Source: Nannocystis bainbridge
GTDB lineage: Bacteria > Myxococcota_A > Polyangia > Nannocystales > Nannocystaceae
Length of the DNA stretch: 64,000 nt
Reading direction: 5' to 3'
Assembly (NCBI RefSeq): GCF_028368995.1
Contig: NZ_JAQNDL010000004.1
Span: forward strand, 691,882-755,881
In this document: in pieces, positions 23,554 through 56,911 of the stretch
Layout: the number at the start of each line of letters is the position of its first letter
How positions within the stretch are numbered: position 1 is the first letter of the stretch
Position numbers and translations under genes: made by a program
The notes under the pieces: model-generated
Told to the model about the DNA's origin: nothing
Databases searched by the model: none
What the model saw: the letters and a program-made list of their open reading frames with translations, nothing else

Positions 23554-24021
23554 TCAGCCCGGCTCGAGGCAGTAGCCGGAGCCGGCGACCTTGTTGTTCT
23601 CGGTCCGGCACTCCTGCCACAGGTGCTCGGGCATGCCGTCGTCGAGGACCACGTAGACCGGCGTCGCGCCGTCGGTGAGGGCCATCGAAGGGTTGGCGAC
23701 GTCGATCGCCACGTCCTCGGCCTCGGCGGGGTAGAGCGCCTTCTTCGTCATGCCCTCGCCGAGCTTGACGCCGCCCATGTCGGGGTCGCCCTCGTAGAAG
23801 CCGACCACCACGCCGGCCGGCACCGCCGCCTGGCCGATGTTGCGGACGCGGGCGACGATGCCGTACGGGCCGTCGCAGCGGGGGAAGATGGTGGCGGTCA
23901 GGTCGGGCGCCGAGAATTCGCCCTCGGGCTGGACGTTCTGCCGATAATTGTTGAGACCGTCGGCCTTCCAGTTGGGCGTCTCGGCGACCGGCACGGTGCC
24001 GTCCTCGCCGATGTTGGTGAT
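23554..24021 (-). pseudogene. 3' part of the element-interrupted FG-GAP lipoprotein gene (CARDB-like domain)
   Basis: ITNIGEDGTVP..NNYRQNVQPEGEFSAPDL..ECRTENN is collinear with the C-terminus of 5410-7767 and begins at the TTGGTGAT core. Confidence 0.92.
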
Positions 24022-24225
24022 GTGGTGTACAGCCAGCTCTAGACCCCCCTACTGGCTGTTCTACAAGGGGTGTCTCGGAAAACGCCAGAATCGCGACAAA
24101 ATCGAGACGATTTTTCGAGACAACCAGGGGATCGCGCCGTCGCGCATCAGGGGCTCCAAGGCACCCCAGACCTCCCGCTTGACCAAGCTTTCAGTCCGCC
24201 GGCCGCCGGACCGACGAGACAAGCG
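24014..24225. repeat. Element left end, copy 1 (att core, hairpin, arm-type motifs)
   Basis: Collinear and highly similar to 25933-26145; TGTCTCGGAAAA at 24071-24082 and TTTTCGAGACA at 24112-24122. Confidence 0.9.
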
Positions 24226-24297
24226 CTGCCGCGACGGGGCACCCCTCAGGCCGGTGGCGGCTTGATTGCGGGCGCAGCGGCGCCTACGGTCGGGGTG

Positions 24298-24783
24298 ATG
24301 ACGACAGCAACGTATACGCATGTCACGACGACCCTGATCGAAGCGCCGGTTGAGGTGGTGTGGTCGCAGGTCCGCGACCTGCTCGTGCTGGTCCGGATGG
24401 TCTTCGGCACGAAGCTCGACGAGTACTACACGCGCGGGTGGATCGAAGGCGGCTCGGTGGACCGCGTGCCGGCGGCGCTCGCGTTCTGCCTGCGATCGGG
24501 CGGGCCGGAGATGGTCGTGGAGGGGGTCGGCCGCTCGGACCGCGAGTACCTGCTGCAGTACTGCACCCGCGGGCGGGTGATGCTCGTGGCCGACTACTTC
24601 GGCGAGCTCCGGCTGATCCCGACGACGCACCCGGCGGACTGGACGGTCATGGTCCACAAGCGGGAGTTCTCGGTGCTCGACGGCACGGCCAGCGACTACG
24701 CGGCGCAGATGGTGGCGGGGATGGTCGACTTCATGAACGGCGAGGCGGAGGCGATGCGGGACGCGTTCACGCCGAAGTCGTAG
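24298..24783 (+). CDS. SRPBCC/START-like protein
   Basis: N-terminal TTLIEAPVEVVWSQVRD pattern, ~160 aa, C-terminal helix. Confidence 0.6.
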   Translation: MTTATYTHVTTTLIEAPVEVVWSQVRDLLVLVRMVFGTKLDEYYTRGWIEGGSVDRVPAALAFCLRSGGPEMVVEGVGRSDREYLLQYCTRGRVMLVADYFGELRLIPTTHPADWTVMVHKREFSVLDGTASDYAAQMVAGMVDFMNGEAEAMRDAFTPKS

Positions 24784-24789
24784 GCGTGA

Positions 24790-24975
24790 TGGTCTGAGGA
24801 GTCCGACCACTTCAGCTTCGCAAAGTTCGTCGTCGAGAAGTTGAACAAGTACAGCGAGTCCAAGCCTCCTGGCCACGCCTCTCCTCTACCAGATCTCAGG
24901 TCCGTTGCAGCTCAGCCGAGGCAGTACACTTGGGGCAGGGTACAATCTGACACCCGGCCGAGACTCTCCAAGTGA
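24790..24975 (+). pseudogene. Start-less, lower-GC open frame (gene remnant)
   Basis: WSEESDHFSFAKFVVEKLNKYSESK...; preceded by an in-frame TGA, atypical codon use. Confidence 0.3.
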
Positions 24976-25049
24976 TTGAGACCGGCCAAGCACAGCAGTC
25001 CTGAGGGGCTCCGACCGAGTGACCTACCGAGGAAGTGGCGCTCGATGCT

Positions 25050-25565
25050 TCAGTAGGCTTCGTCGCGCGCGGACGTCCACGTTTCCCAGGTCAGCCCGAC
25101 GACGAGGTGGTCGAGCAGCCGCGCGTCGGCGACCTCGAACTCGAGGATCTGCACCATGTGCAAATCGCGGAACGCGGGGGGCTTGGGGCCGCCGCTGTTG
25201 TTCTGTGCGTGCCACGCCGCGGCCTTCTCGAAGTTCGCGTTGCTGAGCTCGGTGATCCGGACGATCTCCGCCTCGGCGCTCTCGATGAGCTGCTCGTTGA
25301 ACGCCTCGTCGTGGTTCGCCTGGAGCCCTTCGGAGTACGCGACGAGGCGCGCGGGGGCGCGGGCCGCGAGCTTCGTCGCGCTCTTCTTCGTCTGGTTCGT
25401 GTCCTTGTAGCTGTCGCGCAGCGCGTGGTGCGCGTCGGCGAGGAGCTGGAGCCCGAGGCACTTGTTGGCGGGCACCTCGGGGTACTGAAAGTTCAGGAGG
25501 AGCACCCGCGCGCGAACGGTGCGCTCCTCGAGGGCCTCGATGGTGATCTCGTAGGTCGCGCTCAT
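25050..25565 (-). CDS. Hypothetical protein
   Basis: 171-aa ORF with strongly GC3-biased codons and globular-looking composition. Confidence 0.7.
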   Translation of the reverse strand: MSATYEITIEALEERTVRARVLLLNFQYPEVPANKCLGLQLLADAHHALRDSYKDTNQTKKSATKLAARAPARLVAYSEGLQANHDEAFNEQLIESAEAEIVRITELSNANFEKAAAWHAQNNSGGPKPPAFRDLHMVQILEFEVADARLLDHLVVGLTWETWTSARDEAY

Positions 25566-25932
25566 CCGAGGGCCTGTACCAGAGACGGCGCGGACGACGC
25601 GAGTTCAAAATTCCGAGACCCCCAGTGAGCGAGCGTACTCGCCAAGCGCGACGTGTGGCTCACGTCGTGGCGCGCGGGATTCGATGCGGCCCGCGCCCCT
25701 GTTGCGTCTGCAGCGGGTCGTGGACGCATCGCAGTAACGCAGCTACTGCCCCGCGCGGACGTCGGTCCGCACCGCATGTTGTCGTGGTATCAGCACGCGA
25801 TCCTTGCCCATCGTCGCCACATCTCACCCTAGCGGCGTTCGGCGCTGGCTGATACTAGCCGATTCCACTTCCACGAGAAGGCGCCAAAAGGTGCACTTGG
25901 ACGGCGTTCAGGCGGCTGCCTGAAGCCGAGAT

Positions 25933-26145
25933 TTGGTGATGTGGTGTACAAGCCCAGCTAGACCCACATACGGGCTTGTTTGCGAGGTGTTGTCTCGAAA
26001 ACTGCCCGGATCGCGACAAATTCGAGACGAATTTTCGAGACATCCGGGGGATCGCGCCGTCGCGCATCAGGGCCTCCAAGGCACCCTGGACCTCCCGCTT
26101 GACCAAGCTTTCAGGCCGCCGGCCGCCGGACCGACGAGACAAGCG
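25933..26145. repeat. Element left end, copy 2 (internal att-like site)
   Basis: TTGGTGAT core at 25933-25940; perfect inverted repeat TGTCTCGAAAA (25991-26001) / TTTTCGAGACA (26032-26042). Confidence 0.9.
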
Positions 26146-26302
26146 GAACGGGAACGTCGGCGCGCAGCGCCGAGCGACGGGCGACATCACACTGCCGGCG
26201 AAATTGCGTGACGTGAACCAGAGGACAGGCGACTCCCTCGTGTCCGTCTCGGTTCACGCCGAGCCCTCGCGTTCCGGCCGACGTGCGCCGAACGTCGCGT
26301 AG

Positions 26303-26431
26303 ACCGGCGTCGGCGTCGAGAACATCCGCTACTACGAGCGCATCGGCCTGTTGGCCGAGCCGGCGCGCACCGCCGCCGGCTACCGTCTGTACGAGCCGGA
26401 GCACGTCCGCCGCCTCAACTTCATCCGCCAG
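26303..26431 (+). pseudogene. MerR-family HTH fragment
   Basis: TGVGVENIRYYERIGLLAEPARTAAGYRLYEPEHVRRLNFIR, preceded by an in-frame TAG. Confidence 0.85.
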
Positions 26432-26559
26432 TCCGCGGGCCGCCGTGACAAGGAACGGGCCCCACGTCGCGGCTGGCCACTCTTTTGCGAATCTCGAGAG
26501 GGCGTACCGGCAATGCCGGTACCCTGTGGAGAGCCGGGGTCAGCCGTCAAGCACATGGT

Positions 26560-26945
26560 CAGCCGACCATCAGCTTGGTCTCCGGGAAGGTCACGTGGGC
26601 GCTTCGCGGAGTACCGAGTCGCCAGTGCCAGCGAGATCGGTCCGACGCGGCCGATGAACATCGTGACGATGATCAGCCACTTGCCGAGCGCGTTGAGCTC
26701 GGCCGTGCCGCCGATCGACAGGCCCGAGGTAGCGAGCGCGCTCACCGTCTCGAAGGCCGCCTTCTCGAACGCCATGTCATGGCTGGCGAGCAGGGCGAAG
26801 CTGACGATGACCGCGACGAGCGTGGCGATCGTCATGATCGTCGCGGCGCGGTAGACGATGTCGTGCGGGATTGTCCGGCGCAGCAGCAGGGCCCGCGCCT
26901 GGTTGCGCGCGAGCGCCGGGATCGCGGCGAGCACCACCGCGAGGG
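26560..26945 (-). pseudogene. TrkH/KtrB K+ transporter C-terminal fragment
   Basis: FETVSALATSGLSIGGT..GKWLIIVTMFIGRVGP; N-terminal part absent. Confidence 0.85.
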
Positions 26946-26951
26946 TCGTGG

Positions 26952-27259
26952 TCGACCGTCCAGCCGTCGCCGGGCGGGACGACGTCGACGTGGCCGAAGA
27001 ACGCCACGTGAGGCGAACCGCTGCCGAGGCGCGCCACGAGGTTGTGCACGGTGTGTCCGCTGGCGCCCGCGAAGTCGACGCGCCTGCACGAGAACCCGCG
27101 CGCCGCGAGGGCGCGCGACGCGACCGTGAGCGCGCCGCCCTCCGCGGGTGTGACGCTCGGGCAACGTAGAAGCGAGGCAGCCAGCGGCAACGGATCGTAC
27201 GGATCGTCGAGCCTGAGTGGCTCCACCGGCTGGGGTTCGATCGATGTCGTGATGAGCAT
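26952..27259 (-). pseudogene. dapE: DapE/M20 peptidase N-terminal fragment
   Basis: LLRCPSVTPAEGGAL..NLVARLG..FFGHVDVVPPGD, truncated after the first metal-binding motif. Confidence 0.8.
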
Positions 27260-27376
27260 GGCGAACCGAAGGTGCTGCCGGCGAGGTTAAAATGGCGCCA
27301 AAAAGCCGCTCGGCCGTTGGGACGCGGGAGGACTTGCGTGGCGCTCGCCCGGCGCACGAGCGCCGGCATCACTACA

Positions 27377-27587: not shown

Positions 27588-27680
27588 ATGACCATCATGC
27601 ACTGGCTCGCCGGCCTCGTGTCGATCGGCCTCGGCGTCTACCTCCTCGTCGCCCTCCTCGCCCCGGAGAAATTCTCGTGA
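27588..27680 (+). CDS. kdpF: K+-transporting ATPase subunit F
   Basis: MTIMHWLAGLVSIGLGVYLLVALLAPEKFS*; YL..AL..PE.F signature; GTGA overlap with kdpA. Confidence 0.9.
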   Translation: MTIMHWLAGLVSIGLGVYLLVALLAPEKFS

Positions 27681-29410
27681 CCGCGCATGCGCTCCTGCTG
27701 TGCGGCGTGTACGTCGCCGTCCTCGTCGCCCTGGCGATCCCCCTCGGGGGCTACTGCGCTCGGGCCCTGGGCGGCGAGGCGACGCTGCTTCAACGTCTGC
27801 TCGGCCCGCTCGAGCGCGGCCTCTATCGCGTCGCCGGCGTCCGACCGAACGACGAGATGCACTGGCGCGACTACACCGTCGCCGTGCTGTGGTTCAACCT
27901 GTTCGGCCTGCTCGTCGTGTACGGCCTGCAGCGGCTGCAGCACCTGCTCCCGCTCAACCCGCAGGAGCTCGGCCCAGTCGCGCCGGACCTCGCCTTCAAC
28001 ACGGCGGTCAGCTTCGCCTCGAACACCAATTGGCAGGCGTACGGCGGCGAGACGACGCTTAGCTATCTGACGCAGATGGTCGGGTTGACGACGCAGAACT
28101 TCGTGTCGGCGGCGACCGGCATCGCCGTCCTCGCCGCCCTGTCGCGTGCCTTCTCGCGTCGGCGCTCGGAGACGATCGGTAATTTCTGGGCCGACCTGGT
28201 CCGTTCGACGCTCTACATCCTGCTCCCGCTGTCGCTCGTCCTCGCTGTCGCGCTGGCCGCCGACGGCGTGGTGCAGACGCTGGCGCCCGCAGCGGAGGTG
28301 GAGCTGATGCGCGCGGCCACCGGTCCCGAAGGACAGGTGATCACGCAGCAGACCATCCCGCTCGGCCCCGGCGCCTCGCAGATCGCCATCAAGCAGCTCG
28401 GCACCAACGGCGGCGGCTTCTACAACGTCAACTCCGCGCACCCGCTCGAGAACCCGACGCCGCTGACCAACTTCCTCGAGTGCCTGGCGCTCCTGCTGAT
28501 CCCGGCGGCGCTGTGCCTGAGCTTCGGCAAGATCGTGGCGGATCGGCGCCAGGGCTGGGCCGTGTTAGGGGCGATGTTCGCCATCTTCCTGCCGCTGCTC
28601 GGGCTCTGCGTCTGGTCCGAAGGACAGCTCGCGCCGCAGCTCGTCGAGCTCGGCGTCGATCCCTCGGCCGGCAACCTCGAGGGCAAGGAGGTGCGGTTCG
28701 GTCCGGCCGCCTCGGCGCTGTGGGCGACGGCGACCACCGCGGCCTCGAACGGCTCGGTCAACTCGATGCACGACTCGTTCAACCCGCTCGGCGGATTGGT
28801 GCCGATGTGGCTCATGCAGATCGGCGAGGTCGTGTTCGGCGGCGTCGGCTCGGGGCTCTATGGCATGCTCGTGTTCGCCATCCTGGCGGTGTTCCTCGCC
28901 GGCCTGATGGTGGGTCGCACACCCGAGTACCTCGGCAAGAAGATCGAGGCCTTCGAGGTCAAGATGGCCGCGCTCGTGGTCCTGCTGCCGTCGGCCGGCG
29001 TACTGGTCGGCACCGCGATCGCGGTCGCCAGCGCCGCGGGGCGGGCCGGTATCTCGAACCCGGGCATTCACGGGTTCAGCGAGGTGCTGTACGGCTTCTC
29101 GTCGGCGTCGAACAACAACGGCAGCGCGTTCGCCGGTCTCGGCGCCAACTCGTTCTTCTACAACCTGGCCCTCGGGCTATGCATGCTGATCGGGCGCTAC
29201 GGCATCATCGTGCCGGTGCTGGCGCTCGCCGGCGCGCTCGCCCGCAAGCAGACCGTCCCGCCCGGGCCCGGCACGATGCCGACCCATACGCCGCTGTTCG
29301 TGTTCCTGCTCGCCGCGATCGTCGTGCTGGTCGGTGCATTGACATTCGTGCCCGCGCTCGCGCTCGGGCCGATCGTCGAGCACCTGCAGATGACCGGCAC
29401 CCACCCCTGA
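27677..29410 (+). CDS. kdpA: K+-transporting ATPase subunit A
   Basis: Motifs NTNWQAYGGE, IKQLGTNGGG, NGSVNSMHDS and NNNGSAFAG. Confidence 0.97.
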   Translation: MTAHALLLCGVYVAVLVALAIPLGGYCARALGGEATLLQRLLGPLERGLYRVAGVRPNDEMHWRDYTVAVLWFNLFGLLVVYGLQRLQHLLPLNPQELGPVAPDLAFNTAVSFASNTNWQAYGGETTLSYLTQMVGLTTQNFVSAATGIAVLAALSRAFSRRRSETIGNFWADLVRSTLYILLPLSLVLAVALAADGVVQTLAPAAEVELMRAATGPEGQVITQQTIPLGPGASQIAIKQLGTNGGGFYNVNSAHPLENPTPLTNFLECLALLLIPAALCLSFGKIVADRRQGWAVLGAMFAIFLPLLGLCVWSEGQLAPQLVELGVDPSAGNLEGKEVRFGPAASALWATATTAASNGSVNSMHDSFNPLGGLVPMWLMQIGEVVFGGVGSGLYGMLVFAILAVFLAGLMVGRTPEYLGKKIEAFEVKMAALVVLLPSAGVLVGTAIAVASAAGRAGISNPGIHGFSEVLYGFSSASNNNGSAFAGLGANSFFYNLALGLCMLIGRYGIIVPVLALAGALARKQTVPPGPGTMPTHTPLFVFLLAAIVVLVGALTFVPALALGPIVEHLQMTGTHP

Positions 29411-29422
29411 GATTTCGTCATC

Positions 29423-31489
29423 ATGCACTCGCCCAAGCACAAGCCCGCCCGCGGGCCGAGCATCCGTCGCGCCGCCATCGAGGCGTTCACGAAGCTCGAT
29501 CCCCGGCGCATGGTGCGAAACCCGGTCATGTTCGTGGTCGAGGTCGGCAGCGTCCTCACGACCATCCTCGCCGTCCAGGCCCTGGTCGGCGAGGGGGAGG
29601 CCCCCTTCGGGTTCATCGCCGGCGTCGCCGCCTGGCTGTGGTTCACGGTGCTGTTCGCCAACTTCGCCGAGGCGCTTGCCGAGGGCCGCGGCAAGGCGCA
29701 GGCCGAGAGCCTGCGCAAGGCCCGGCAGCACGTGCAGGCGCGCCGGCTGGCCGAGCGCGACCGACACGCCAAGGCCGTGCAAGTGCCGGCAGCGCAGCTC
29801 CGCCGTGGCGACCTCGTCCTCGTGATCGCCGGCGACACAGTTCCCGGCGACGGCGACGTGGTCGAGGGCATCGCCTCCGTCGACGAGAGTGCCGTGACGG
29901 GCGAATCAGCGCCGGTCATCCGCGAGAGCGGCGGCGACCGCAGCGCCGTCACCGGCGGCACGCGGGTGCTGTCGGACTGGATCATCGTCGAGATCCGCAG
30001 CAATCCCGGCGAGACCTTCCTCGATCGCATGATTGCGATGGTCGAGGGCGCCAAGCGCAAGAAGACGCCGAACGAGATCGCGCTCGACATCTTGCTCGCC
30101 GGGCTGTCGCTGGTGTTCTTGCTCGCCTGCGCGACGCTGTACCCGTTCTCGCTCTACGCGCTCGAGACGCGCGGCCAGGGCGCCCCGGTGCCGATCACCG
30201 TGCTCGTCGCGCTGCTCGTGTGTCTGATCCCGACCACGATCGGCGGACTCCTGTCGGCGATCGGCATCGCCGGTATGGATCGCCTGATCCGCGCCAACGT
30301 GATCGCTACGTCGGGGCGCGCGGTCGAGGCCGCCGGCGACGTCGACGTCCTCCTGCTCGACAAGACCGGCACGATCACGATCGGCAATCGTCAGGCGGTC
30401 GAACTGCTGCCGGCGGCGGGCGTGAAGGTCGAGGTGCTCGCGGAGGCCGCCCAGCTCGCCTCGCTGGCCGACGAGACGCCCGAGGGCCGCAGCATCGTCG
30501 TCCTCGCCAAGGAGAAGTACGGCCTGCGCCAGCGCGAGCTCGCCAACACCGAGGCGCGCTTCATCGCCTTCACGGCGCACACTCGCATGAGCGGCGTCGA
30601 TCTCGCCGGTCGCGAGATCCGCAAGGGCGCCGCCGACGCGATCGGCAAGCACCTCAAAGCCAAGGGCGGCGGTCTGAGCCCCGACATCCAGGCCCTCGTG
30701 CAGACGATCGCCAAGAGCGGCGGGACCCCGCTGGTCGTCTCCGAGGGGTCGAGGGCGCTCGGCGTCGTGCACCTGAAGGACATCGTCAAGGGAGGGATCC
30801 GCGAGCGCTTCGCCGAGTTCCGGCGGATCGGCATCGAGACGATCATGATCACCGGAGACAACCCGCAGACCGCCGGCGCGATCGCGGCGGAGGCCGGGGT
30901 CGACAGCTTCCAGGCCGAGGCCACCCCCGAGACCAAGCTGGCGCTGATCCGCAGCAAGCAGGCGGCCGGTCACCTGGTCGCTATGACCGGCGACGGCACC
31001 AACGACGCGCCCGCGCTGGCGCAGGCCGACGTCGCGGTGGCGATGAACACGGGTACGCAGGCGGCGAAAGAGGCCGGCAACATGGTCGACCTCGACTCCG
31101 ACCCGACCAAGCTCCTCGACATCGTCGAGATCGGCAAGCAGATGCTGATGACCCGCGGGGCGCTGACGACCTTCAGCGTCGCCAACGACGTCGCCAAGTA
31201 CTTCGCCATCATTCCGGCCGCCTTCGCGGTGACCTATCCGGATTTGCGCGCGCTCGACCTGATGCACCTGCACTCACCGCAGAGCGCGGTGCTCGCGGCG
31301 GTGATCTTCAACGCGATCATCATCATCCTGCTGGTGCCGATCGCGCTGCGCGGCGTGAAGGTGCGGCCGCTCCCGGCGGCGGCGCTGCTGCGGCGCAACC
31401 TCCTGATCTTCGGGCTCGGCGGCCTCGTCGCGCCCTTCATCGGGATCAAGCTCATCGACATGGTCATCACGACCGTCGGCGTCGCCTGA
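29423..31489 (+). CDS. kdpB: K+-transporting ATPase subunit B
   Basis: Motifs [20 protein letters not shown] and [15 protein letters not shown]. Confidence 0.97.
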
Positions 31490-31502
31490 GGAGGACACGA
31501 GC

Positions 31503-32075
31503 ATGCTGAGCGCCATTCGTCCCGCCCTGATCCTGCTGGCCCTCTTGACCGCCGTCACCGGCGTGGTCTACCCGCTGCTCGTGACGGGGATCGCTACCGT
31601 GCTGTTTCCTGATAAGGCCCATGGCTCGCTGGTTGTCGCGTCGTCGGGCCCCGTCGGCTCCGAGCTCGTCGGACAGAACTTCACCAGACCGGGTGATTTC
31701 TGGAGCCGTCCCTCGGCGGTCCACTACGACGCGAGCTCCTCGGGCGCGAGCAACATGGGGCCGCTGAATGAGGGCCTGCACGAGGCCGTCGCGGCGCGAA
31801 TCGCTGCGCTGCAGGCAGCCGACCCCGAGGCCGAGCTGCCGGTCCCCGCCGATCTCGTGCTCGCGTCGGGGTCGGGCCTCGACCCGCATATCTCGCCGGA
31901 GGCAGCCCGCTACCAGGCGCGTCGCGTCGCGCAGGCACGCCGCCTGCCCAGGGCAGAAGTGCTCATGCTGATCGAGGCCCACACCGAGGGGCGCACGCTC
32001 GGTATCCTCGGGGAACCGCGCGTGAACGTGCTTCGCCTCAACCGCGCCCTCGAGGGGCTCCGATCCTCGCCATGA
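31503..32075 (+). CDS. kdpC: K+-transporting ATPase subunit C
   Basis: Motifs SGSGLDPHIS and GEPRVNVLRLN. Confidence 0.96.
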   Translation: MLSAIRPALILLALLTAVTGVVYPLLVTGIATVLFPDKAHGSLVVASSGPVGSELVGQNFTRPGDFWSRPSAVHYDASSSGASNMGPLNEGLHEAVAARIAALQAADPEAELPVPADLVLASGSGLDPHISPEAARYQARRVAQARRLPRAEVLMLIEAHTEGRTLGILGEPRVNVLRLNRALEGLRSSP

Positions 32076-39455: not shown

Positions 39456-39474
39456 GGTCGACTCCGTGGTGTGC

Positions 39475-40272: not shown

Positions 40273-40353
40273 GATGGTTTCCGCCCCGAAGACGACGACC
40301 CTCCCGAAAGGACGCAGACTTTTTTCGGGCCTCGCCGCCTCCCGCTTTCGGGC

Positions 40354-40393
40354 TTGAATCTCGGCGCCTGAGGCTATATCGTTAAAATGCGAT
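40354..40393 (+). promoter_or_regulatory. Probable arsR promoter (TTGAAT-N17-TATCGT) overlapped by operator ATCG-N8-CGAT
   Basis: -35 at 40354-40359, -10 at 40377-40382, inverted repeat 40378-40393 spanning the ATG. Similar ATCG-N8-CGAA at 40742-40757. Confidence 0.55.
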
Positions 40394-40733: not shown

Positions 40734-40793
40734 CCCGCTAAATCGTCCTTCTACGAACGCGAGCGCCGGCCTCGCGTCGATGGAGTGTTCTGC

Positions 40794-41834: not shown

Positions 41835-41837
41835 CCC

Positions 41838-42263: not shown

Positions 42264-42434
42264 GTCGCCCGTCGCCGCGGCGAACCGCTGTCCACTCGAA
42301 CGACAGCGGCTTTCACGGCGCCACGTGCGGGGGGCCGATGGTGTACCGCGTTAGTTCGACAGGGCGCCGTGCAGGTTGCCGCGGCATTGCCCCCGGCGGG
42401 TGACATCGCCCGCTGCGCGAGGTACCTTGAGCGT

Positions 42435-43523: not shown

Positions 43524-43527
43524 GCGC

Positions 43528-45210: not shown

Positions 45211-45305
45211 CGTTGCGAAGGTACCACGCGCGGGTCCGCGCGCGAAGCCGGGGCGCGACGTCCAGGCGCGTTGACGACGTTCTATTTCTGCCAAGGGGGT
45301 AGACC

Positions 45306-46220
45306 CTAGAAGCGCCCGAAAAGCGAAAGGCCGGCGCCCTGGGGCCCGCCGTAGGGCGCAAGACGGGCCCGGTCCGTCGTCGGGCGCAGCTTGCCGCGGG
45401 CGACCATGCCGATGCCGACAGCCCCGAGCACCGCCGCCGAGATTGCGAGGCCGATCTTGGCGCCCCGCGTCCACGTCCCCACGGATCCGAGGTCGCTCAT
45501 GCGCTGCGCCTGCTCCGGGGTCCGATGGCCCGCCTGTTCAATCTCGGCGATCAACGTCTCGAGGTCATTGAACGCCCCGGCGCGGCGGACCTGCACGGGG
45601 ATGATGGCGAGGGCGGCGAGGGCGGCCGTGCCAAGCAGGACCCCGCCGGCGATCGTCAGGCCGTTGGCGCGCGGAGGCGTGCGGCCCGTCGTCGGCGCTG
45701 TCATCGCGGGCGAAGGTTCGCGCGCCTGCTCGGGTTCCGCCACGGGGCCGGGCTTCGGCTCGGATGTCGGCTGCACGCAAGGGGGCGCGACGAAGCGCGC
45801 GTCGCCGCGTGCGGCCGCTTCAGCGTGCGAGGCGAGGCCGGCGCGCGCTTCGTCGCGGAAGTCCGTCGCCTCGGGCGGCGGGGTGTCCGTGCGCGCGAGG
45901 ACCCGCTCCGCGGTGGCGAGTAGTTGGCACAGGTGCGCGGCGTCGTTCGTGCGCTGGTACGCGACGCGGCGGGCGGTCACGGCGAGCGTGAGCAGATCGC
46001 CGAGGTCCTTGACGTCGGACGTGTCCGCGAGTCTCGACTCCACCAACTCGGCAGCGGTGATGAGCCGCTCGAGCGGCGCGAGGTTGTCGGTGGTGATCGT
46101 CGGGTCGGCCGCCGTGATCTCGTCGTTGATCTCGGCGTTGGTCGCCGTGGGCGACAGCGGCGGCGCCGCCAGGGTGGGCCCCGCAAGGACGAGGGAGAGC
46201 AAGGCGGCGCGCGCGGGCAT
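45306..46220 (-). CDS. Secreted helical protein with C-terminal hydrophobic hairpin and terminal-Phe strand
   Basis: Signal peptide MPARAALLSLVLAG, two Gly-rich hydrophobic segments, ends GAGLSLFGRF. Confidence 0.7.
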   Translation of the reverse strand: MPARAALLSLVLAGPTLAAPPLSPTATNAEINDEITAADPTITTDNLAPLERLITAAELVESRLADTSDVKDLGDLLTLAVTARRVAYQRTNDAAHLCQLLATAERVLARTDTPPPEATDFRDEARAGLASHAEAAARGDARFVAPPCVQPTSEPKPGPVAEPEQAREPSPAMTAPTTGRTPPRANGLTIAGGVLLGTAALAALAIIPVQVRRAGAFNDLETLIAEIEQAGHRTPEQAQRMSDLGSVGTWTRGAKIGLAISAAVLGAVGIGMVARGKLRPTTDRARLAPYGGPQGAGLSLFGRF

Positions 46221-46398
46221 GGGTTCGTTGTACCACCACGCCGGCCGAACGTGCTCCCGGCGTGGGTTGAAAGGGGGAGGATCGCGGCGGAACGAGGGGG
46301 TGAAGCGCGGCCGGGTGTGGGACGAAACGGGCCTGAAAATGGCAGGAAAGGCATTTAGGCGGTCTTTCTCGCCTGGGGCTGTGGCACTCTTGGCGACG

Positions 46399-48939: not shown

Positions 48940-49017
48940 GCGCTCAAGAGCGCGTCTTGACGTAGCGGTCGTAGGCGATGCCCAAGGCGCCTGTTCGTCG
49001 GGTCGCAGAGGAGCAGG

Positions 49018-49920
49018 CTACGAGCGGCCCCGAGACTGCATGACGATGGCCGCAGCACCCGCGCCCGCAGCGACGCACGACACGCCGAACAGGAGCTTGC
49101 GGCCGAGACCCCAGTCCTTCCGGGCGGACAGCTCGGCGAGCTCGGCCTGATCCTGCACGTAAAGTCGCTCGAGCTCGCGGTTCGCCTGCTTCAGTCTGGC
49201 GATCTCGGCTTCATCTTCCGCCCGGAGACGCTCGAGCGCGGCGTTCAAGCCGCGCAGTCTTTCGAGCTCGGCGGCGCCGTCTGCGAGCCGCTTCTCGAGC
49301 GCGACGTTCATCTCGTGGAGCCGACTGATACGCTCAGTCAACTCGGCCGCGAGCGCCTCGGCCTTCGCTTGCGCCGCGCGCTCGGCCGCCGCTGACATCG
49401 TGGGTGTCGGGTTCGGGACGGCCCACAGGTGGCGTGCCCTCGTCTCCTGCTTCACGGCCTCCACTTCCTCAATGCCGACGACGATCGCCTGCTCGACCTC
49501 CGCATCCATGAAGCTGACGAGCCCGAATTCCTGCTCGGCGCCCAGCGTAGCGACGAGACGATCGAACGTCGCCAGCGTGGGGTTCGGGTCGGGGTCGTTG
49601 AGAAGGCTGCTGAGCTGAGAGCGGTTGATGCCGGAGACCTTGGCGAGCGCCGACACGGTCAGAATCTGCTCGCGCGCGATGATCTCTCTGATCCGCCCAA
49701 CGACTGCGGCAGGCTTGTTGACCTCGATACCATGGAAGCGAGCTCCGGCCTTGTGCACGAGTTCGAGGTAAAGCCCTAGCTTCGGGTTTGGCTCGGGCTG
49801 ATCGAACAACGCGAGCACGTGGGCGGAGTTGTGTTCCGAGCGCTCCGCGAGCTCTTGCTTCGTCAAGCCCGAACGTCGCAGCCATCCCTCTAACTCCCCG
49901 AACCACCGACGCGTGCTCAT
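49018..49920 (-). CDS. Tandem XRE-type HTH protein with coiled coil and C-terminal membrane anchor
   Basis: Two units (GLTKQELAERS..PNPKLGLYLEL and TVSALAKVSGINRSQLSSLL..PNPTLATFDRL), heptad region, tail LLFGVSCVAAGAGAAAIVM. Confidence 0.85.
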   Translation of the reverse strand: MSTRRWFGELEGWLRRSGLTKQELAERSEHNSAHVLALFDQPEPNPKLGLYLELVHKAGARFHGIEVNKPAAVVGRIREIIAREQILTVSALAKVSGINRSQLSSLLNDPDPNPTLATFDRLVATLGAEQEFGLVSFMDAEVEQAIVVGIEEVEAVKQETRARHLWAVPNPTPTMSAAAERAAQAKAEALAAELTERISRLHEMNVALEKRLADGAAELERLRGLNAALERLRAEDEAEIARLKQANRELERLYVQDQAELAELSARKDWGLGRKLLFGVSCVAAGAGAAAIVMQSRGRS

Positions 49921-49961
49921 AGTCGTCCATCGTACGGCCCAGGGCACGCCGGTCAAGCACC

Positions 49962-51935
49962 TGTTGCTCCGCGCGATCCAACACCGTTGGTCGCGCCGGA
50001 GCAACACCGACGGCCGCGCGCTCGCGCCGAGCAACATCGCCCGCCGGGGGAGCAACACCGACGGCCGCGCGTTCGCGCTGAGCGACAAACGGCCGGACGC
50101 TCGCGCGGAGCAACACCGCCTCGCCGGAGCAACACCGACGCGTGCTCGCGCCGAGCGACATCGCCTCGCCGGGAGCAACACCGACGGCCGGGTGCTCGCG
50201 CCTCGCCGGGAGCAACACCGACGGCCGGGCGTTCGCGTTGAGCAACATCGTCTCGCCGGAGCGCTCGTACATGGCCACCGCCGCGCGCAACGGGCCGACG
50301 AGGGCGGCGCACACAACGCTCGTGCATGGCCACCGCCGCGCGCAGCGGGCCGACGTGCGCGCCGGCGTCGTGCCCTATGGCGGCCCCTGCGGTGCCGGCC
50401 TCGGTCTGCACGGCAGCTTCCAGCTGTTGGCCCGAGGTATTGGCCGCCCCGGACGCTGTTGCTCCGCGGAGGGAGGTGTTGGCCGCGCGCGAGGCTGTTG
50501 CTCCGCGCGACGGCGGGGCCACGCCAGCGCGTGTGTTGCGGCCGGGGGCGTCGGTGAGATGTCAGCGAGGCGGAGGTGTTGGCCGCCGCGCAGGCTGTTG
50601 CGCCGCGCAGGGACTGTTGCCGCCGGATGTTTCGCCCGACAGCGGGGCCCGCCAGAACCAAACTAGCGACGGCCGACGTCGCGCCGAAGAAGATCGAGTC
50701 GCCGCACGAGGGCGCACGGCCGAAACCAACCGACGCGACGTGCAAGCGAATCGGGAAGACGCCGTCGAGGCGCCAAAGCGCCTGCATAGACGTCCCGGGC
50801 GCTACCACGGCCGACCTCGACGTCGTTCGCTCGGCGCGCGTGGGGTCGCCGACTGTTGCTCGGGGCGCGGCACGAGGTGTTGCTCGATGCGCGGGGTGTT
50901 GATTGTGGTGTTGCTCGGCGCGCCGGAGGTGTTGTTCGGCGCGCGGGTGAACGCCGGCTGTTGCTAGCGATGCTGCTCGGCGCGCGGTGTTGCTCGCGGT
51001 GTTGCTCGGCGCGTGGGGGGGCTCGGTGCGGGTGCTCGCCGGCTGTTGCTCGGCGCACAGATCGACGCGCGGTGTTGCTCGGGCGCGCGGCATTGTTCTG
51101 CGCGGGTGCTCGCCGGCTGTTGCTCGCCGGGCTGCTGGCGCGAGGTGTCTCTCCGTGCGGGCGTTACTCGGCGCAGCTCGGGCCGGGGTGTTGTTCGCGG
51201 CGTTGCTCGGTGCCCGGGGTGTTGCTCGCGGTGTTGCTCGGCGCGCGGGTGTTGTTCGGCGCGCGGGTGTTCGCCCGGCTGTCGCTCGCCGCGCAGCTCG
51301 GCGCGCGGGTGTTGCTCGCGGTGTTGTTCAGGCGCGCGGCGTTGCTCGGGGCGCGGGCGATCGGCGGCCACTCGCCGCGCAGCTCAGCGCGCGAGGTATT
51401 GCTCGGCGTGTGGGTGTTGCCCGCCACGCAGCTTGGGTCGAGGTGTTGCTCGGGGCGCGGGGCGTTGCTCGGGGCGCGGGCGACCGCCGGCTGTTGCTCA
51501 GCGCGCTGCTCGGCGCGCGGGTGAGCGTCGGCTGCCGTTCGGCGCGCAGCTCAGCGCACGGGTTGTTGTCTGCGGCGTTGCTCGGAGCACGCGGGTGTTG
51601 CTCGGCGCGCGGGTGATCGCCGGGTGTCGCTCGGCGCGCGGGTGTTGCTCGGCGCGCGGGTGTTGCTCGGCGTGTGCGGGGTGTTGCTCGTCCCCCTAAA
51701 TTTGGGCTAGACAAGGTCCCTCAACCACATTCCGCGCTTATCGTGGCCCATATTTATTGCTTATTTCATGAGTCGAAATATGGTCGAAAGGCCAGGCCGA
51801 GCGCAGCTTGCCGAAGATCGCCGGAGCGGAACAACGCGCTCGGGATAGCTCGGTGGAGCAACACCCTGCACGCGAACACGCGCCGAGCAATACTGCACGC
51901 GCGTCGAGTAACAGCCGCGCGCGGAACAACGGCAC
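49962..51935. repeat. Array of dozens of TGTTGCTC(G)/GAGCAACA motifs in three orientation blocks
   Basis: About 10 GAGCRACA at 49999-50247. Roughly 40 TGTTGCTCG-like copies at 50420-51691, with the 18-bp unit GGTGTTGCTCGGCGCGCG near the end. About 5 reversed degenerate copies at 51826-51935. Counts made by eye. Confidence 0.9.
50657..50829 (+). pseudogene. Degenerate duplicate of the kinase 3' region (48541-48782)
   Basis: TKLATADVAP..SPHEG..DVPGATTADLDVVR; 24-bp identity between 50806-50829 and 48759-48782. Confidence 0.85.
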
Positions 51936-52036
51936 GCGCGCCTTGCACCCCGCACGCCTCCCTGTCGTCACCCCCTGTTGTGCCGTCGGACGAACAGCCC
52001 TTGTCGGCCGCCCGGCCCGGCCTATGCTCGTGCTCC

Positions 52037-53029
52037 ATGGGAACGCGGCGATGGTTCATGGACCTGGACGCATGGATGCGCCGGGCGGGTTTGAGTAAGG
52101 AGGCGGTAGCGAGAACGTCTGGGCACAAGACAGCGCACGTGCTGGCGCTGTTCGACGAACCGGACCCGAACCCTTCGCTGCGTCTCTACCTCGATCTGGT
52201 CCAGGCGGCCGGCGCCCAGCTAATCGGGGTGCGGGACAACACGCCCCGCGCCGTGATCGAGCGTCTCGCGAGTATCACCCGCGAGAACGAGATCACGATG
52301 TCCGCGCTCGCACGCGCTTCGAATGTTAACCGGCCGCAGCTCAGCACCCTGTTCAACGACCCCGAGCCGAACCCGAAGCTGGCGATTATCGATCGCATCG
52401 TTGTTGCCCTGGAGGCCGAACGGGACTTGGGACTCATGGGAGCAGCTCCGGACGCGAATGAAGTCGAGAGCGACGAGGACGACGACGACGACAGCCAGGA
52501 GAATGAGGACGGCGACGCGGACGATGATGGCCAGGAGAACGAGGACGGCGACGAGGACGACCGGGACGAGGACGGCCAGGACGACGAGGACGACGAGGGC
52601 GACGGCGCCGGCGGGGACGACGACCAGGACGACGAGGACGACGGCTACGCCGACGACGACGGCCAGGACGACGAGGACGACGGCGGCGGGGACGACGACG
52701 GCCGGGGCGACGAGGACGACGGCGACGCCGACGACGACGCCCAGGACGACGAGGACGACAGCGACGCGGACGGCCAGGATGACGAGGACGACGACGAGGA
52801 CGAGGACGGCGGCGAGGATGAGCTCGACGAAAGCCGCGGCGGCGGTTTCGAGATTTCGGTGCAGGTGCTTAGCGAGCAGAATCTGGCCTTGCAGCGACAG
52901 GCTCTGATCGACGAAGTCGAGATTCGCGCGCTGAAGAAGCGAAGCCGCTGGAACGCGTTTAAGGTGGTCGCTGGCGCTGTTCTCGGTGCCGGCGTCGCGG
53001 CTGCTGTGCTGAAGCGTCGCAAGGAGTAG
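52037..53029 (+). CDS. Tandem XRE-type HTH protein with long Asp/Glu tract, short coiled coil and C-terminal membrane anchor
   Basis: MGTRRWF.. paralog of 49018-49920; ~120-aa D/E/G low-complexity tract; tail VVAGAVLGAGVAAAVLKRRKE. Confidence 0.85.
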   Translation: MGTRRWFMDLDAWMRRAGLSKEAVARTSGHKTAHVLALFDEPDPNPSLRLYLDLVQAAGAQLIGVRDNTPRAVIERLASITRENEITMSALARASNVNRPQLSTLFNDPEPNPKLAIIDRIVVALEAERDLGLMGAAPDANEVESDEDDDDDSQENEDGDADDDGQENEDGDEDDRDEDGQDDEDDEGDGAGGDDDQDDEDDGYADDDGQDDEDDGGGDDDGRGDEDDGDADDDAQDDEDDSDADGQDDEDDDEDEDGGEDELDESRGGGFEISVQVLSEQNLALQRQALIDEVEIRALKKRSRWNAFKVVAGAVLGAGVAAAVLKRRKE

Positions 53030-53098: not shown

Positions 53099-54715
53099 CT
53101 ACACCGAGGCCGTGGCCTCGACCGCCGTGGCATCGATCGCGCCCATGCTCTGCCGCTGCTTGGCGCGCGGGGGCCGGCGGGCTGGCTCCCGCCCGACCTC
53201 GGCCGGCGGCAGGTCCATGGCCGCGGCGATGTGTTCCCAGGTGCCATCACTGCACCATCGCTCATACCAGCGCCACGACGTTGTGGCCGCGCCGTGCTCC
53301 TTCGGTAACTCGCTCCACTTCGCGCCGGTGTGTAGGACCCAGCGGATCGCGTCGACCGTGCGGCGGAGATCGGTGCGGGGTCCACCGCAGCGCCCCCGGG
53401 TGCCCTCGACCATCGCCGCGATCCGGCTCCACTGCGCATCACTCATCGACACGAAGGGGGCCGGCGGGGTCGGCGGGAGCGCGGCGATCGGCTGTGCTGC
53501 TTCCACGATCCGGTCGGTCGCGGTCTCGAGCGCCTGGCGCAGGTAATCGTCCGCGAGGTGCGTGTAGCGCTTGGTGGTCCGGTCTTGCTTGTGGCCGAGC
53601 AACTTCCCGACCGTGCTGAGTGTCGCGCCACTCATGAGCGCGTCGCTGGCGAACGAGTGCCGGAGGTCATGCAACCGGACGTCGGGGATCCCGGCGGCCT
53701 TGCGGATGTTGTCCCAGGTGTGATTGATGCCGCGCAGACGTTTGCCGTTCCGTGTGCACAGCACGTACCCCGTGCGCGGGTTGCCGGCTTGATCGTGGAT
53801 ATGCTTCAGGAGACCCAGCACGCGGCTGGAGACGGGTACCTTGAGCTGTCCGGTCTTGGTGTCCGGCAGGTTCAGGAGCGAGTGTTGCCAGTCGACCATG
53901 GCCCATGTGAGCGTGAGGATCTCATCGCGCCGACGCCCAGTGAGCGCGAGCAGATCGATCGCCCACACGCTCACCAGCTTGAGGTGGCCCTTGCGTGGGG
54001 CGGGGATCTTGAGGCCCGCGAGGATCACCGCTTGCACGCGCTGTCGCTCCTCCGGAGTCAGGAAGCGCTCGCGCTCCGGGATGGTGAAGTGCCGGATCTT
54101 GTGCGCCGGGTTGCGGATATCGGCGAGCTCCCAGTCCTCCGTGATCCGCGTGTACAGGCTGCTGATCACGCAGAGCATGAGGTTCGCCGCGCCGGGCCGA
54201 TCCTTCATCGCGGTGTGAAGCTCGGCTACTTCTGCCTTGGTGATGCTCCGGTAGTTGCGATCCCCGAGCTTCGGCACGATCACCGTCTCGAGCGCGTGCT
54301 TGTAGTTCACGGCGGTACCTGCCTTAAGGTGCGCGTCGACGTGCGTGCGGATGAATCGCTTGGCGAGCTCACGAATCGTGTCCGCCTCGCACGGCGACGA
54401 TTCCACCTGTTTCAGACGAGCGCGCTTGCCCGCGGCCGCACGGCCGGAATGTACAGTGTCGCCCGGCTCGTTCGCGTCCGCGGCTGCGTTAGTGAGCATG
54501 ACAGCCGCCCGTCGCCGCGCCTCGTCAATCGACAGAGTGGGTCCGAGCAGTCCGATTTTCTGGCGGTGATCCTTGCCGTCCACTCGGAAGCGAACCAGCG
54601 CGACTTTCTTCCCCGTGGGCAGGACCCGCAGCAGGAAGCCCGGCAGGGCATCGCAGGTTACTTCGTACATCTTCGCGCGAGGCTTGCAGTCGCGCACGAA
54701 CGCAGCAGTGATCAT
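53099..54715 (-). CDS. Tyrosine integrase (arm-binding, core-binding and catalytic domains) with C-terminal DUF4096-like domain
   Basis: PGFLLRV..GKK..IG arm-binding domain; catalytic TGRRRDEI, DTKTG, HDLRH, LLGH and TKRY; tail MSDAQWSRI..DLRRTVDAIRWVLHTGAKWSELP..RWCSDGTW. Confidence 0.92.
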   Translation of the reverse strand: MITAAFVRDCKPRAKMYEVTCDALPGFLLRVLPTGKKVALVRFRVDGKDHRQKIGLLGPTLSIDEARRRAAVMLTNAAADANEPGDTVHSGRAAAGKRARLKQVESSPCEADTIRELAKRFIRTHVDAHLKAGTAVNYKHALETVIVPKLGDRNYRSITKAEVAELHTAMKDRPGAANLMLCVISSLYTRITEDWELADIRNPAHKIRHFTIPERERFLTPEERQRVQAVILAGLKIPAPRKGHLKLVSVWAIDLLALTGRRRDEILTLTWAMVDWQHSLLNLPDTKTGQLKVPVSSRVLGLLKHIHDQAGNPRTGYVLCTRNGKRLRGINHTWDNIRKAAGIPDVRLHDLRHSFASDALMSGATLSTVGKLLGHKQDRTTKRYTHLADDYLRQALETATDRIVEAAQPIAALPPTPPAPFVSMSDAQWSRIAAMVEGTRGRCGGPRTDLRRTVDAIRWVLHTGAKWSELPKEHGAATTSWRWYERWCSDGTWEHIAAAMDLPPAEVGREPARRPPRAKQRQSMGAIDATAVEATASV

Positions 54716-54738
54716 GAACCCCTACCTTCCACCTCTAG

Positions 54739-54853
54739 TTTTCGAGACAAAATCGGGCCAAGCAAGCGGCCCACGGGACCTGTCCGAAAGTGCACAATCT
54801 GGCGCGCAGCGCCGCGCAGAGCGGTTTCAGGACATAGGTACCATATTGGTGAT
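54739..54853. other. Element right end (att core and arm-type site)
   Basis: TTTTCGAGACAAAATCG at 54739 matches the left-end motifs; core TTGGTGAT at 54846-54853 within CATAT-TGGTG-ATATG. Confidence 0.85.
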
Positions 54854-56911
54854 ATGATAAGTGTGCTGATTCCACACGCGGCGGGTGCGGACCCACGAGC
54901 CGTTGGCGCTGCCGAAGATCCGGATGCCGGACTGGCGGGTGTTGTTGTCGGGGCAGGTGACGCCGTAGGCGTTGCTGGCGACGACGATGTCGGCCTGGCC
55001 GTCGTTGTCGACGTCGGCCACCAGCGGGTACTCCCACAGGGTGCCGGTGGTGTTGCAGGTGCTCGGGATCAGGTTGGTGCCGGTCTGACCGTCGTACATC
55101 CAGAGGTGGTACTCGTCGGAGTAGATGACCTCGGCCTTGCCGTCGCCGTTGAAGTCGAACACCGACGAGCCGGTCACCGCGGACGAGCAATCGTGGGTGG
55201 TCTTGAACCACAGGTCGATGTCGCTGTTGGCGACGGCGGGGTCCATCATCAGCTTGCCGCTGAAGACGATGTAGCCGACGGCCCCGGCGGCGCCGACGTC
55301 GGGCACGCCGTCGCCGTCGAAGTCGGCGACGGTCGGCGGGCCGCCGCCGTACTCGTTGGCGGCGTTGCAGAACACCTTGGTCGAGATGCCGTCGTTGATG
55401 TCGACGCCCTTGCGCAGCACCTGGGCGCCGTCGGGGCTGTTCATGTCGTAGCGCACGACTTGCATGGTGTGCGGGCCGCCGCTCGAGATGATGACGACCT
55501 CGGGCTGGCCGTCGAGGTCGAAGTCGCCGACGCCGTGGTAGCCGCCGACGATGGCGTTGGGGCCGCTGCGCAGGTCCCACAGGATGTCGCCGTCGGCCCG
55601 GTAGGCGCGCTGGCCGTCGGTGACGTCGAGGAAGCCGTCGCCGTCGAGGTCGCTGAGGCCAGTGAGGCGCTGCCCCCAGCTGGTGGCCGGATCGAGCTCG
55701 GTCTTGACGGCGCCGGTGGCCCCGTCGAGGAGGGTGAAGCCGACGAGGACCTCGGGCACGCCGTCCTGATCGACGTCGCCGATCGCCGGCGCCTGGTTGC
55801 CGCAGTGGACCTTGGTGGTGTCAGGCTGGGTCCAGAGGGTGGTGCCGTCGGCGTTGAAGGCGATGACGCCGGTGTTCTGGGCGACCGCGTCGCAGCACGA
55901 GACGCCAGCCGGGCCAGGGTTCATGCAGCCGACGATCTCGGGCACGCCGTCGCCGGTGAGGTCGGCTGCCGCGAGGCCACCACCAGGCTGGACGACGTTG
56001 GGCACGCTGAACTTCTCGACGAGCTGGCCGCCGACGACGGAGACGGCGTGGAGGGTGCCCTGCTTGAAGTAGGCGCCGCCGCTGAAGGTGCTGAAGACGA
56101 TCTCGGGGATGTCCTTCTCGTTGACCTTGCCGTCGCAGTCGTCGTCGTCGAGGTTGATGACGATCGGCGACATCATGACGTCGCTGGCATACGGCGGGGT
56201 GACCTGGCCGCCCCAGGCGTGCTTGAGGACGATGCCGAAGTCCTGGACCGGCGGGACGACCTCGCATTTGGGGAGGCAGGTGATCGGCTCGCCCTCCATC
56301 GGCTCGACGCCGTCGGGGCACTCGGGCGGCTGCGGGAGGCACTTGCCGCCGTCGAGCGAGACGCCGCCCATGCACATGGGCGGCTGCTCGGCCTCGCCGA
56401 GGGTATATTCACAGTAGAAGCCGTCAGGGCAATCGGTGGCATCGACGCAGTCGTCGCCGGGGACGACGCACTCCTGGAAGGAGCAGACCTCGCCGAGGCC
56501 GCAGCAGGTGTCGGTGCAGGCCTGGTTGATCGGGCAGCAGGTCTGGCCGACGCAGACGCCGTCCTCGCAGGTGTCGGCGCAGGCGGGGCCCATGTCGGGG
56601 CCGGGGCCGGTGGAGGCGCCCATGGTGGTGTCGGTGACCGTCGCTTCGCCGGAGTCGGTGGTCGGGCCGCTGGCGGCCGTGGTGCCGAGAGTGTCGCCGG
56701 CGGTGCCGGCGGTGTCGGGGCCGCCGGTGGTCGGCGGGACATTGCTGGTACCACCAGTGGTGGGGCCGGTGGTGAGGCCGCCGCTCGCTTCGGTGGCGCT
56801 GGCCCCCGCGGAGTCGGTGCCCGCGCCGCCGTTGTCGCCGCACGCGGCCAGCAAGAACATCGCCCCCATCCGCAGCGCGTGGCGCTGCGAGACCCTCGAA
56901 TTCCTAGGCAT
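54827..56911 (-). pseudogene. 5' part of the interrupted FG-GAP lipoprotein gene (could still make a truncated ~694-aa protein)
   Basis: LLAAC lipobox and FG-GAP repeats collinear with 5410-7767 up to WNQHTYHITN, then MVPMS* read from element DNA. Confidence 0.92.

Follow-up and report, generated by a model that had tools for sequence, protein, structure and literature searches.

The window analysed here is a stretch of 64,000 nucleotides from Nannocystis bainbridge (contig NZ_JAQNDL010000004.1, positions 691,882 to 755,881), in which a gene for an FG-GAP lipoprotein on the minus strand is split by an insert that carries a tyrosine integrase. The two halves end at copies of a core sequence, TTGGTGAT, at 24014 and 54846, with a spacing of 30,832 bp. 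This sequence occurs 5 times in the window against 0.39 expected, a count reached in 0 of 100 shuffles. The 5′ half of the gene (54827..56911, minus strand) encodes 694 residues, with the lipobox LLAAC, a Cys-rich region and FG-GAP repeats (PF13517, E 1e-23; PF01839, E 1e-18), and ends ...YHITN followed by MVPMS and a stop (WNQHTYHITNMVPMS*). Over residues 1–690 it is 91% identical to the orthologues of two related genomes, G007 and G005. The orphan 3′ half (23554..24021, minus strand) has 155 codons and a stop; its translation begins ITNIGEDGTVP..., contains no internal stops and is 88% identical to the tails of the orthologues. Intact orthologues read WNQHTYHI[ST]NIREDG.. across the junction and have 162 residues from WNQH to the stop. 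The halves in the window, when joined at the core, give the same length and are collinear with the orthologues, so that precise excision would restore an intact coding frame.

Much of this had been set out in a preliminary description of the locus and is borne out here: the position and sequence of the cores, the freedom of both halves from stops and frameshifts, the collinearity of the joined product and the presence in the window of a paralogue with WNQHAYHVTNVAEDGTIP (C4:697779, about window 5898). The same description called the tail encoded by the 3′ half CARDB-like. Its fold as predicted is compatible with this, and its sequence finds no partner in Pfam even with the threshold relaxed to E ≤ 10. 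The predicted structure (pLDDT, the predicted local distance difference test, 80.7) is a β-sandwich that has the CARDB domain of PF1109 (3idu) among its best matches to solved structures (E 4e-4, template modelling score by target 0.65–0.69), and it also matches other Ig-like sandwiches. An assembly artefact was considered as the source of the split and rejected, since both junctions lie within one contig and the same anatomy is seen in a relative assembled as a single contig.

Recombination sites and modules of the insert

The insert is bounded by direct-repeat cores that are identical at its two ends. The attL core TTGGTGAT (ATCACCAA in the orientation of the gene) is at 24014..24021 and adjoins an outer P′ arm of about 210 bp (24022..24225), in which TCGAGAC/TCGCGAC repeats are candidate arm-type sites for the integrase. 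The attR core TTGGTGAT is at 54846..54853, 131 bp from the start of the integrase gene, and its region has, as read from the sequence, the inverted-repeat layout CATAT-CACCA-ATATG typical of tyrosine-recombinase cores. Between the integrase and this core lies the P arm (54716..54845), with TTCGAGACAA at 54741–54750. It also contains the five island-encoded codons and stop with which the truncated host protein ends, and a terminator-like hairpin (54754–54773, minus strand) between that stop and the start of the integrase.

The preliminary description implied a single element of 30.8 kb, which is not what the sequence between the outer cores supports. A third TTGGTGAT core is present at 25933–25940 (attI), followed by a second copy of the arm, the inner P′ arm (25941..26145), which forms the left end of what follows. 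Taken with their cores, the arms at 24014–24225 and 25933–26145 are direct repeats, with 18 nt identical from the core and 87% identity over 215 columns, rising to 92% over a stretch of 155 nt. In a tree of arms the inner arm is the nearest relative of the outer one (85% identity). The DNA to the left of the internal core and the DNA to the left of attR are unrelated to each other. The insert thus consists of two tandem modules rather than one element: a module of 1.9 kb without an integrase and one of 28.9 kb with a tyrosine integrase that is catalytically intact by its motifs. In the orientation of the window the left part consists of the 3′ half, attL, arm, 1.7 kb of cargo and attI, and the right part of attI, arm, 28.7 kb, integrase, P arm, attR and the 5′ half. 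Only recombination of attL with attR would rebuild the gene; that of attI with attR would take out the large module alone, with the gene still interrupted. Modules set between three direct att sites, an integrase-less one beside an integrase-bearing one, are also what a review covering ICESt1-type elements describes for accretion that involves cis-mobilisable elements (CIMEs; PMC5704250). As in that system several alternative excision products are possible, and relatives of the window carry arrays of modules.

The integrase (538 aa; 53099..54715, minus strand) consists of Arm-DNA-bind_3, SAM-like and catalytic domains followed by a C-terminal DUF4096. The catalytic domain matches PF00589 with an E of 4e-25 over profile positions 20–170 of 172, and DUF4096, the N-terminal helix-turn-helix (HTH) of IS5-type transposases, is matched with an E of 5e-20. 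That the catalytic motifs are retained, as already noted in the preliminary description, is confirmed by the presence of R (RRRDE), HxxR (HDLRH), H (LGH) and Y (RYTH); the protein has both these residues and the arm-binding N-terminus of this class of tyrosine recombinase. The same residues are kept in 14 of 14 aligned relatives. All twelve aligned integrases of the long clade (window copy counted) have them, and 11 of these twelve also have the DUF4096 signature WRWY.RW; the fusion is no accident of the window copy. The system is not an integron: the integron-integrase models, whose cut-offs are 265 and 435 bits, scored 37.5 and 24.4, and the modules, which are kilobases long and bounded by 210-bp arms, are unlike integron cassettes.

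It seems probable that tandem accretion has given rise to a composite integrative island with site-specific insertion, and that truncation of the gene is a by-product. The integrase would recombine the attP of the island, in which the core ATCACCAA lies between a P arm of ~130 bp on the integrase side and a P′ arm of ~210 bp, with the stretch of an FG-GAP lipoprotein paralogue that codes for its conserved Y-H-[IV]-T-N motif. A further integration, again at this core, would have joined the 1.9-kb integrase-less and 28.9-kb integrase-bearing modules. Integration of this kind would truncate the host protein after the β-propeller, add five residues and a stop, and orphan the CARDB-like tail. The copy in the window plausibly still excises at some spontaneous frequency, which would reverse the insertion. 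The truncated protein is presumably made, and we infer that disruption of the gene is incidental and not used by the host.

Target motif of the integrase lineage

A survey of integrases in 41 genomes, including that of the window, found the long (DUF4096) clade at 20 loci where the N-terminus of the integrase is present. Three of these are within 100 bp of a contig end and were left out, so that 17 could be assessed. At every one of the 17 loci a co-oriented FG-GAP frame ending WNQH.Y..T[NK] is found directly upstream of the integrase, and the targeted frames are of several paralogue types (RTRRVWNQH.., RWIQARRIWNQH.., SWRPGRKIWNQH..). Three named Nannocystis records have the same arrangement of an integrase after an FG-GAP frame. 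As the same motif is used in many paralogues at all 17 loci, the pattern is attributable to the target preference of the element. The choice of site is a property of the integrase lineage, exercised across many paralogues and species of Nannocystis-type genomes, and the motif is probably favoured for its conservation, for its many copies and because any one of these can be spared. At least eight other uninterrupted paralogues bearing the motif are found in the genome of the window, so loss of one tail is probably cheap, and two other paralogues offer unoccupied exact TATCATATCACCAAT targets (G000:C2:2792272 and C2:2902088, G000 being the genome of the window). The length of the open frame upstream of the integrase was also tried as a test of an intact 5′ half and proved unreliable at 70% G+C; the target relic beside a sibling island on G000:C3, described below, also reads open upstream though it is not an FG-GAP gene.

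The target codons, TAT CAT ATC ACC AAT (window 54838–54870 for the split gene), bring AT-ending codons into genes whose third positions are ~93% G+C. The 15 letters are identical in three paralogues, those of the window, G000:C2:2902088 and C2:2792272, which are otherwise 66–75% alike in their DNA. Such synonymous conservation is unusual.

Fixed-target integrases within coding genes are known, and their targets are usually single-copy genes. As the article texts describe them, the dusA-specific integrases (PMC4482086) are a tyrosine-integrase lineage with a fixed attB in a coding gene, recurrent and with varied cargo, and a clade that targets prophage late genes (PMC10111431) has the same coding-gene attB recurring across genomes; the lineage of the window resembles both in these respects. 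It differs from the two clades, so far as those texts portray them, in that its target is a motif of a many-copy family, with several attB sites per genome and several paralogues hit, and in that its integrase carries the extra DUF4096. It also truncates the gene rather than restoring its end, apparently with the exception of an island on G003:C8 where a 42-codon tail is duplicated. The features that are new are, as we read them, the target motif in a paralogous family, the fusion to DUF4096 and the module arrays with conserved ends of their own; literature searches, confined to article texts without supplements, found no paper on these features or on mobile elements of Nannocystis. With many landing sites in one genome, islands accumulate there and exchange modules. 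This offers a testable model of cargo gain in the very large genomes of myxobacteria, exemplified by a second Kdp K+ pump and arsenic detoxification, as well as a candidate tool for site-specific integration in Nannocystis.

A short clade of integrases, ~47% identical and without DUF4096, was found after D[DN]DG..YMV in FG-GAP genes and DUF4215 Cys-repeat genes at 6 of 6 loci examined. Four of its members (L059, L061, L062 and L064, in G002, G009 and G003) lie directly after ..CDDGNV.YMV in Cys-repeat genes of the DUF4215 type. A D-D/N-D-G coding motif, in two families of secreted proteins, is thus the apparent target of this clade. One of its integrases has split a second FG-GAP paralogue in the genome of the window by ~39 kb (G000:C2:2860766–2902580; L005, L030). 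There the 5′ half ends ..ADVDNDGYMV* and is followed by an integrase of 432 aa, 47% identical to that of the window and without DUF4096, and the 3′ part resumes at ADIDNDGQADIVV.. and is uninterrupted through WNQHTYHITNVNEDG. The att site is a different one, ~55 codons upstream of the window-type site, and the gene could be rebuilt.

Orthologous sites and alternative readings

Orthologues of the split gene are intact across the junction in six genomes (G007, G005, G003, G002, G013 and G009; the gene of G003, which like G007 and G005 is of the same genus, is 87% identical to that of the window) and split in two, the window and G001, the latter in a decayed state. That of G004 could not be judged, as its contig ends at the core. 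The interruption is therefore not one that is maintained among relatives. In G001 the cut in the orthologue lies at the same core, next to which are an arm and an open tail of 157 codons, and a deletion fuses residue 486 of the 5′ half to the island backbone, residues 487–694, attR and the integrase having gone. Since this copy can never rebuild the gene and yet keeps its tail open, an open tail is no evidence of a switch or of selection for re-joining. The arm at the G001 site is of a different lineage from the outer arm of the window (the two are 73% identical, against 85% between the outer arm and the window's own inner arm), which is indicative of separate insertions, or of turnover, at a single hot spot. 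The two carriers may nevertheless descend from a single ancestral insertion, for which speak an upstream flank gene common only to G000 and G001 and a divergence between them that is similar for island backbone (~92% identity) and host gene (~90%), and against which the arm lineages stand.

In G004, a fragmented metagenome-assembled relative, the contig with the orthologue (G004:C63, L012) ends exactly at the core, and another contig (G004:C303, L042) ends ~90 bp upstream of an integrase 62% identical to that of the window. Such contig ends resemble a break in the assembly at an att site, which would be expected of mixed strains with and without the island.

Intervening elements that are excised during development are known, the nifD element of cyanobacteria among them. 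The skin/sigK, SPβ/spsM and gin/gerE systems, as presented in the article texts (PMC5025042, PMC4191935, PMC5595907), are like the window in having an element within a coding gene whose frame is rebuilt by precise excision. They concern single-copy late genes of terminal cells, in which excision is timed and the element is kept among strains (PMC5025042, PMC4191935, PMC5595907); the interruption in the window is, in contrast, sporadic among orthologues and affects a gene with many paralogues. The SPβ recombinase is moreover of the serine type according to the text consulted (PMC5499854), that of the window a tyrosine integrase. The preliminary description had left the choice between a recent insertion and a regulated switch. 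Its premise, that a site-specific element splits the gene and that attL × attR would rebuild the frame, stands; a split gene that excision can rebuild is, however, the normal footprint of a site-specific element, and alone is no evidence of a developmental switch.

A switch in which starvation, fruiting or stress leads to recombination of attL with attR, and so converts the truncated into the full-length CARDB-tailed lipoprotein, is very improbable on what was found. It would draw on the precise in-frame restoration that two open halves allow, on an integrase with intact catalytic motifs and on the two Cro/C1-type regulators that adjoin it, and the second paralogue on G000:C2, split likewise by a related integrase, could be rebuilt in the same way. 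Set against this, 6 of 8 judged orthologues are intact, the G001 copy is irreversibly broken with its tail still open, and the target pattern tracks the integrase over many paralogues at 17 of 17 loci, as the specificity of an element predicts; sporadic occurrence, a decayed carrier and a target that follows the integrase together argue against a maintained switch. The hairpin between the host stop and the integrase does not suggest co-transcription by read-through, a weak point given 2 such sites against 1.3 expected, and no excisionase was recognised in scans of the open reading frames (ORFs) of the island. In the known switches the cells concerned are terminally differentiated, and no result links the window gene to a cell type of that kind. 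Developmental regulation of excision is thus unsupported.

The insert could also be an immobilised relic, one that has lost excision for want of a directionality factor or through decay of an arm or regulator, and has left an inactivated or truncated gene that will itself decay. This we regard as rather unlikely. The state of the orthologous site in G001 shows what such decay leads to, a sibling island on G000:C3 has an integrase with a frameshift and a stop codon, gene debris is present in the large module, neither excisionase nor transfer genes were recognised, and the core-proximal end of the small module is without the complete palindrome that 9 of 12 ends of this kind possess (see below). 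The frame and all catalytic residues of the window integrase are intact, however, the attL and attR cores are identical, and both halves of the gene are undamaged with a ratio of nonsynonymous to synonymous substitution rates (dN/dS) that is not near 1. This ratio, proposed in the preliminary description as a check on the 3′ half, is 0.21–0.33 for the orphan 3′ half against intact orthologues, compared with 0.16–0.20 between intact pairs and 0.25–0.31 for the 5′ half. There is at most slight relaxation of selection on the orphan tail, whose 155 codons give low power and cannot separate recent insertion from retained function.

Several observations weigh against an incidental truncation by an island that is still mobile, and they belong beside the arguments for it. 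Exactly five island-encoded codons and then a stop follow the host frame at 13 of the 17 loci, which is in line with a switch and could mean that the truncated form is selected. In relatives all four 3′ ends that adjoin arms are open (4 of 4), again as a switch would have it. The dN/dS of the orphan tail fits a recent insertion and also a tail still in use. Towards its left end the large module consists of gene debris (26283–27372), suggestive of some decay. Excisionases and directionality factors are small, diverse proteins, and none was recognised among the ORFs of the island with Pfam, NCBIfam and PHROGs, a search that was not exhaustive for small ORFs. Nor was any phage structural, conjugation or replication family found (Pfam on 30 island ORFs, NCBIfam and PHROGs on subsets). 

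As to integrative and conjugative or mobilisable elements, no relaxase, coupling protein or type IV secretion family was present in the scans of island ORFs, in which no search for oriT was included. With neither conjugation nor mobilisation genes found in any module, the island differs from such elements and is not placed among them.

Public sequence data were also considered at the junction. The window matched 22 public runs, none of them from the strain itself and none of RNA. All are Logan contigs, 19 being from soil metagenomes, and the highest share of sampled words in any of them was 0.33. Four soil-metagenome contig sets (X1–X4) were aligned to window 37500–57400, the distance of 30.8 kb from attL to attR exceeding a single 20-kb reference. 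The aligned contigs are short, come from several related organisms and contain many chance joints, and give no verdict on excision. In X3, contig record 23 (422 nt) matches from 55008 to exactly 54846, with 7 differences in 163 nt, and continues with 259 nt unlike the island, and contig record 22 has a related integrase and attR beside a different flank.

Sibling islands, module ends and cargo

A sibling island is present in the same genome at G000:C3:445559–473360 (L029, L032). Its integrase, 77% identical to that of the window, is a pseudogene, frameshifted around residue 51 and interrupted by a single TGA, and all that the right flank of the island retains of the target is a relic of ~30 bp (..RWNHRTYHITN). 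The left junction of the island is a joint between modules with a GTGGAACGGTTCCA palindrome, from which the array probably continues further left. Remnants are also found at C2:97390–97939 and C1:1278162–1278531 of the same genome; at the former a fragment of an integrase N-terminus (67% identical, 105 aa) abuts a copy of the P′ arm in an attP-like order.

Copies of the arm are numerous in relatives, with 19 in G003, 6 in G007, 4 in G001, 3 in G013 and 0 in G009 (32 in four of the five relatives searched), and they are often strung out downstream of an integrase, as with five within 56 kb in G007. A strict core pattern applied to 30 arm loci gave 15 arm ends, reading CACCACATCACCAA or, at one locus, CACCACATCACGAA. 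These are followed by an open FG-GAP 3′ end in 4 cases, by an integrase-type P arm in 1 and by other DNA in 10. The last ten, together with attI of the window and the left junction of the G000:C3 island, make up 12 ends of integrase-less modules. A palindrome, GTGGAAy(0-10)rTTyCA, lies 53–64 nt from the core in 9 of the 12 (L075, L076, L082, L083, L088, L090, L092, L096 and G000:C3:445500), where chance would give ~0.0003 per 160 nt in this genome. The P arm on the integrase side has no such palindrome, and the small module of the window has only a degenerate half of it. The palindrome may serve for binding, perhaps by the DUF4096 domain, and its being shared suggests that the non-autonomous modules form a lineage and are not chance wrecks.

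These arrays allow another reading, that FG-GAP lipoprotein genes of Nannocystis-type genomes are docking platforms for an integrase-driven cassette system whose modules can be shuffled, excised or captured in trans. Every such event would switch a surface lipoprotein between its tail-less and full-length forms, and a social bacterium would gain a heterogeneity of the cell surface that is heritable and yet reversible. In this view autonomous islands with the integrase–DUF4096 fusion and non-autonomous modules, the latter with the ~210-bp arm on one side and the GTGGAAC..GTTCCA palindrome on the other, build up arrays of up to five or six. We consider this reading unlikely. Exchange between species is indicated by one 235-bp arm that is 98.7% identical in two species and by an integrase region with 95.5% identity next to a host gene with 88%.

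On G003:C8 (L038, L067 and L093; 686619, 716298 and 725443) an integrase lies after an apparently complete FG-GAP gene with a short tail, whose 42 codons recur behind two arms further downstream. It seems that this island carries a replacement 3′ end, restoring the gene rather than truncating it. That the 42-codon tails might be decayed was considered and rejected, as this paralogue subfamily (L008) naturally has a tail of 40–42 codons.

The cargo of the small module (24226..25932) includes two ORFs and no integrase. One of the ORFs of this module (24070..24783, plus strand) has a weak, below-cut-off match to SRPBCC/Polyketide_cyc2 and the other (25565..25050, minus strand) belongs to no family; no homologue of this cargo was found among the 30 arm loci of relatives. 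The large module starts, after its arm, with the patch of gene fragments (26283..27372), which are MerR-like, TrkH-like and M20 peptidase-like, partly as judged from translations. The K+ and arsenic cargo named in the preliminary description was found as stated. The genes kdpA, kdpB, kdpC, kdpD and kdpE (27677..35496, plus strand) form a second K+-ATPase operon in the genome, with 65–75% DNA identity to the chromosomal copy at G000:C2:1973959–1979122, and are followed by a BBP2 (OmpL-like) β-barrel porin (35530..37047, plus strand) and an extracytoplasmic function (ECF) sigma factor (38207..38782, minus strand). A segment of 565 bp that takes in the 5′ end of the ECF sigma gene and continues beyond it (window 38510–39074) is 98% identical to G000:C2:785484–786047, by which a very recent duplication between island and chromosome is indicated. 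The arsenic cluster (39475..42263) consists of a SAM methyltransferase on the minus strand and ArsR, an ACR3-type SBF carrier and an LMWPc arsenate reductase on the plus strand. Neither sibling island, that on G000:C3 or that in G001, contains this cluster.

The backbone shared with sibling islands (42300..50005) encodes proteins of 384, 648 and 380 aa that fall into no family, together with a Ser/Thr kinase and part of an HTH protein. Window 42300–48977 is 91.6% identical to G000:C3:462207–468873, a backbone of 6.7 kb, and window 42300–50005 is 91.8% identical to G001:C1:6256717–6264428. For the no-family proteins Pfam, NCBIfam and PHROGs gave nothing and Atlas gave unnamed Myxococcota clusters or scores below 0.9; for two backbone proteins it gave no phage, conjugation, replication or excisionase family. 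Next to the integrase are two divergent Cro/C1-type HTH proteins (51093..49018, minus strand; 51674..53029, plus strand) with highly repetitive segments, which are candidate regulators of the island. Dense imperfect direct repeats are found within and between these two genes (window 49900–52900), of two types: units of 9–15 bp that encode acidic D/E runs and GC-rich units of 30–90 bp.

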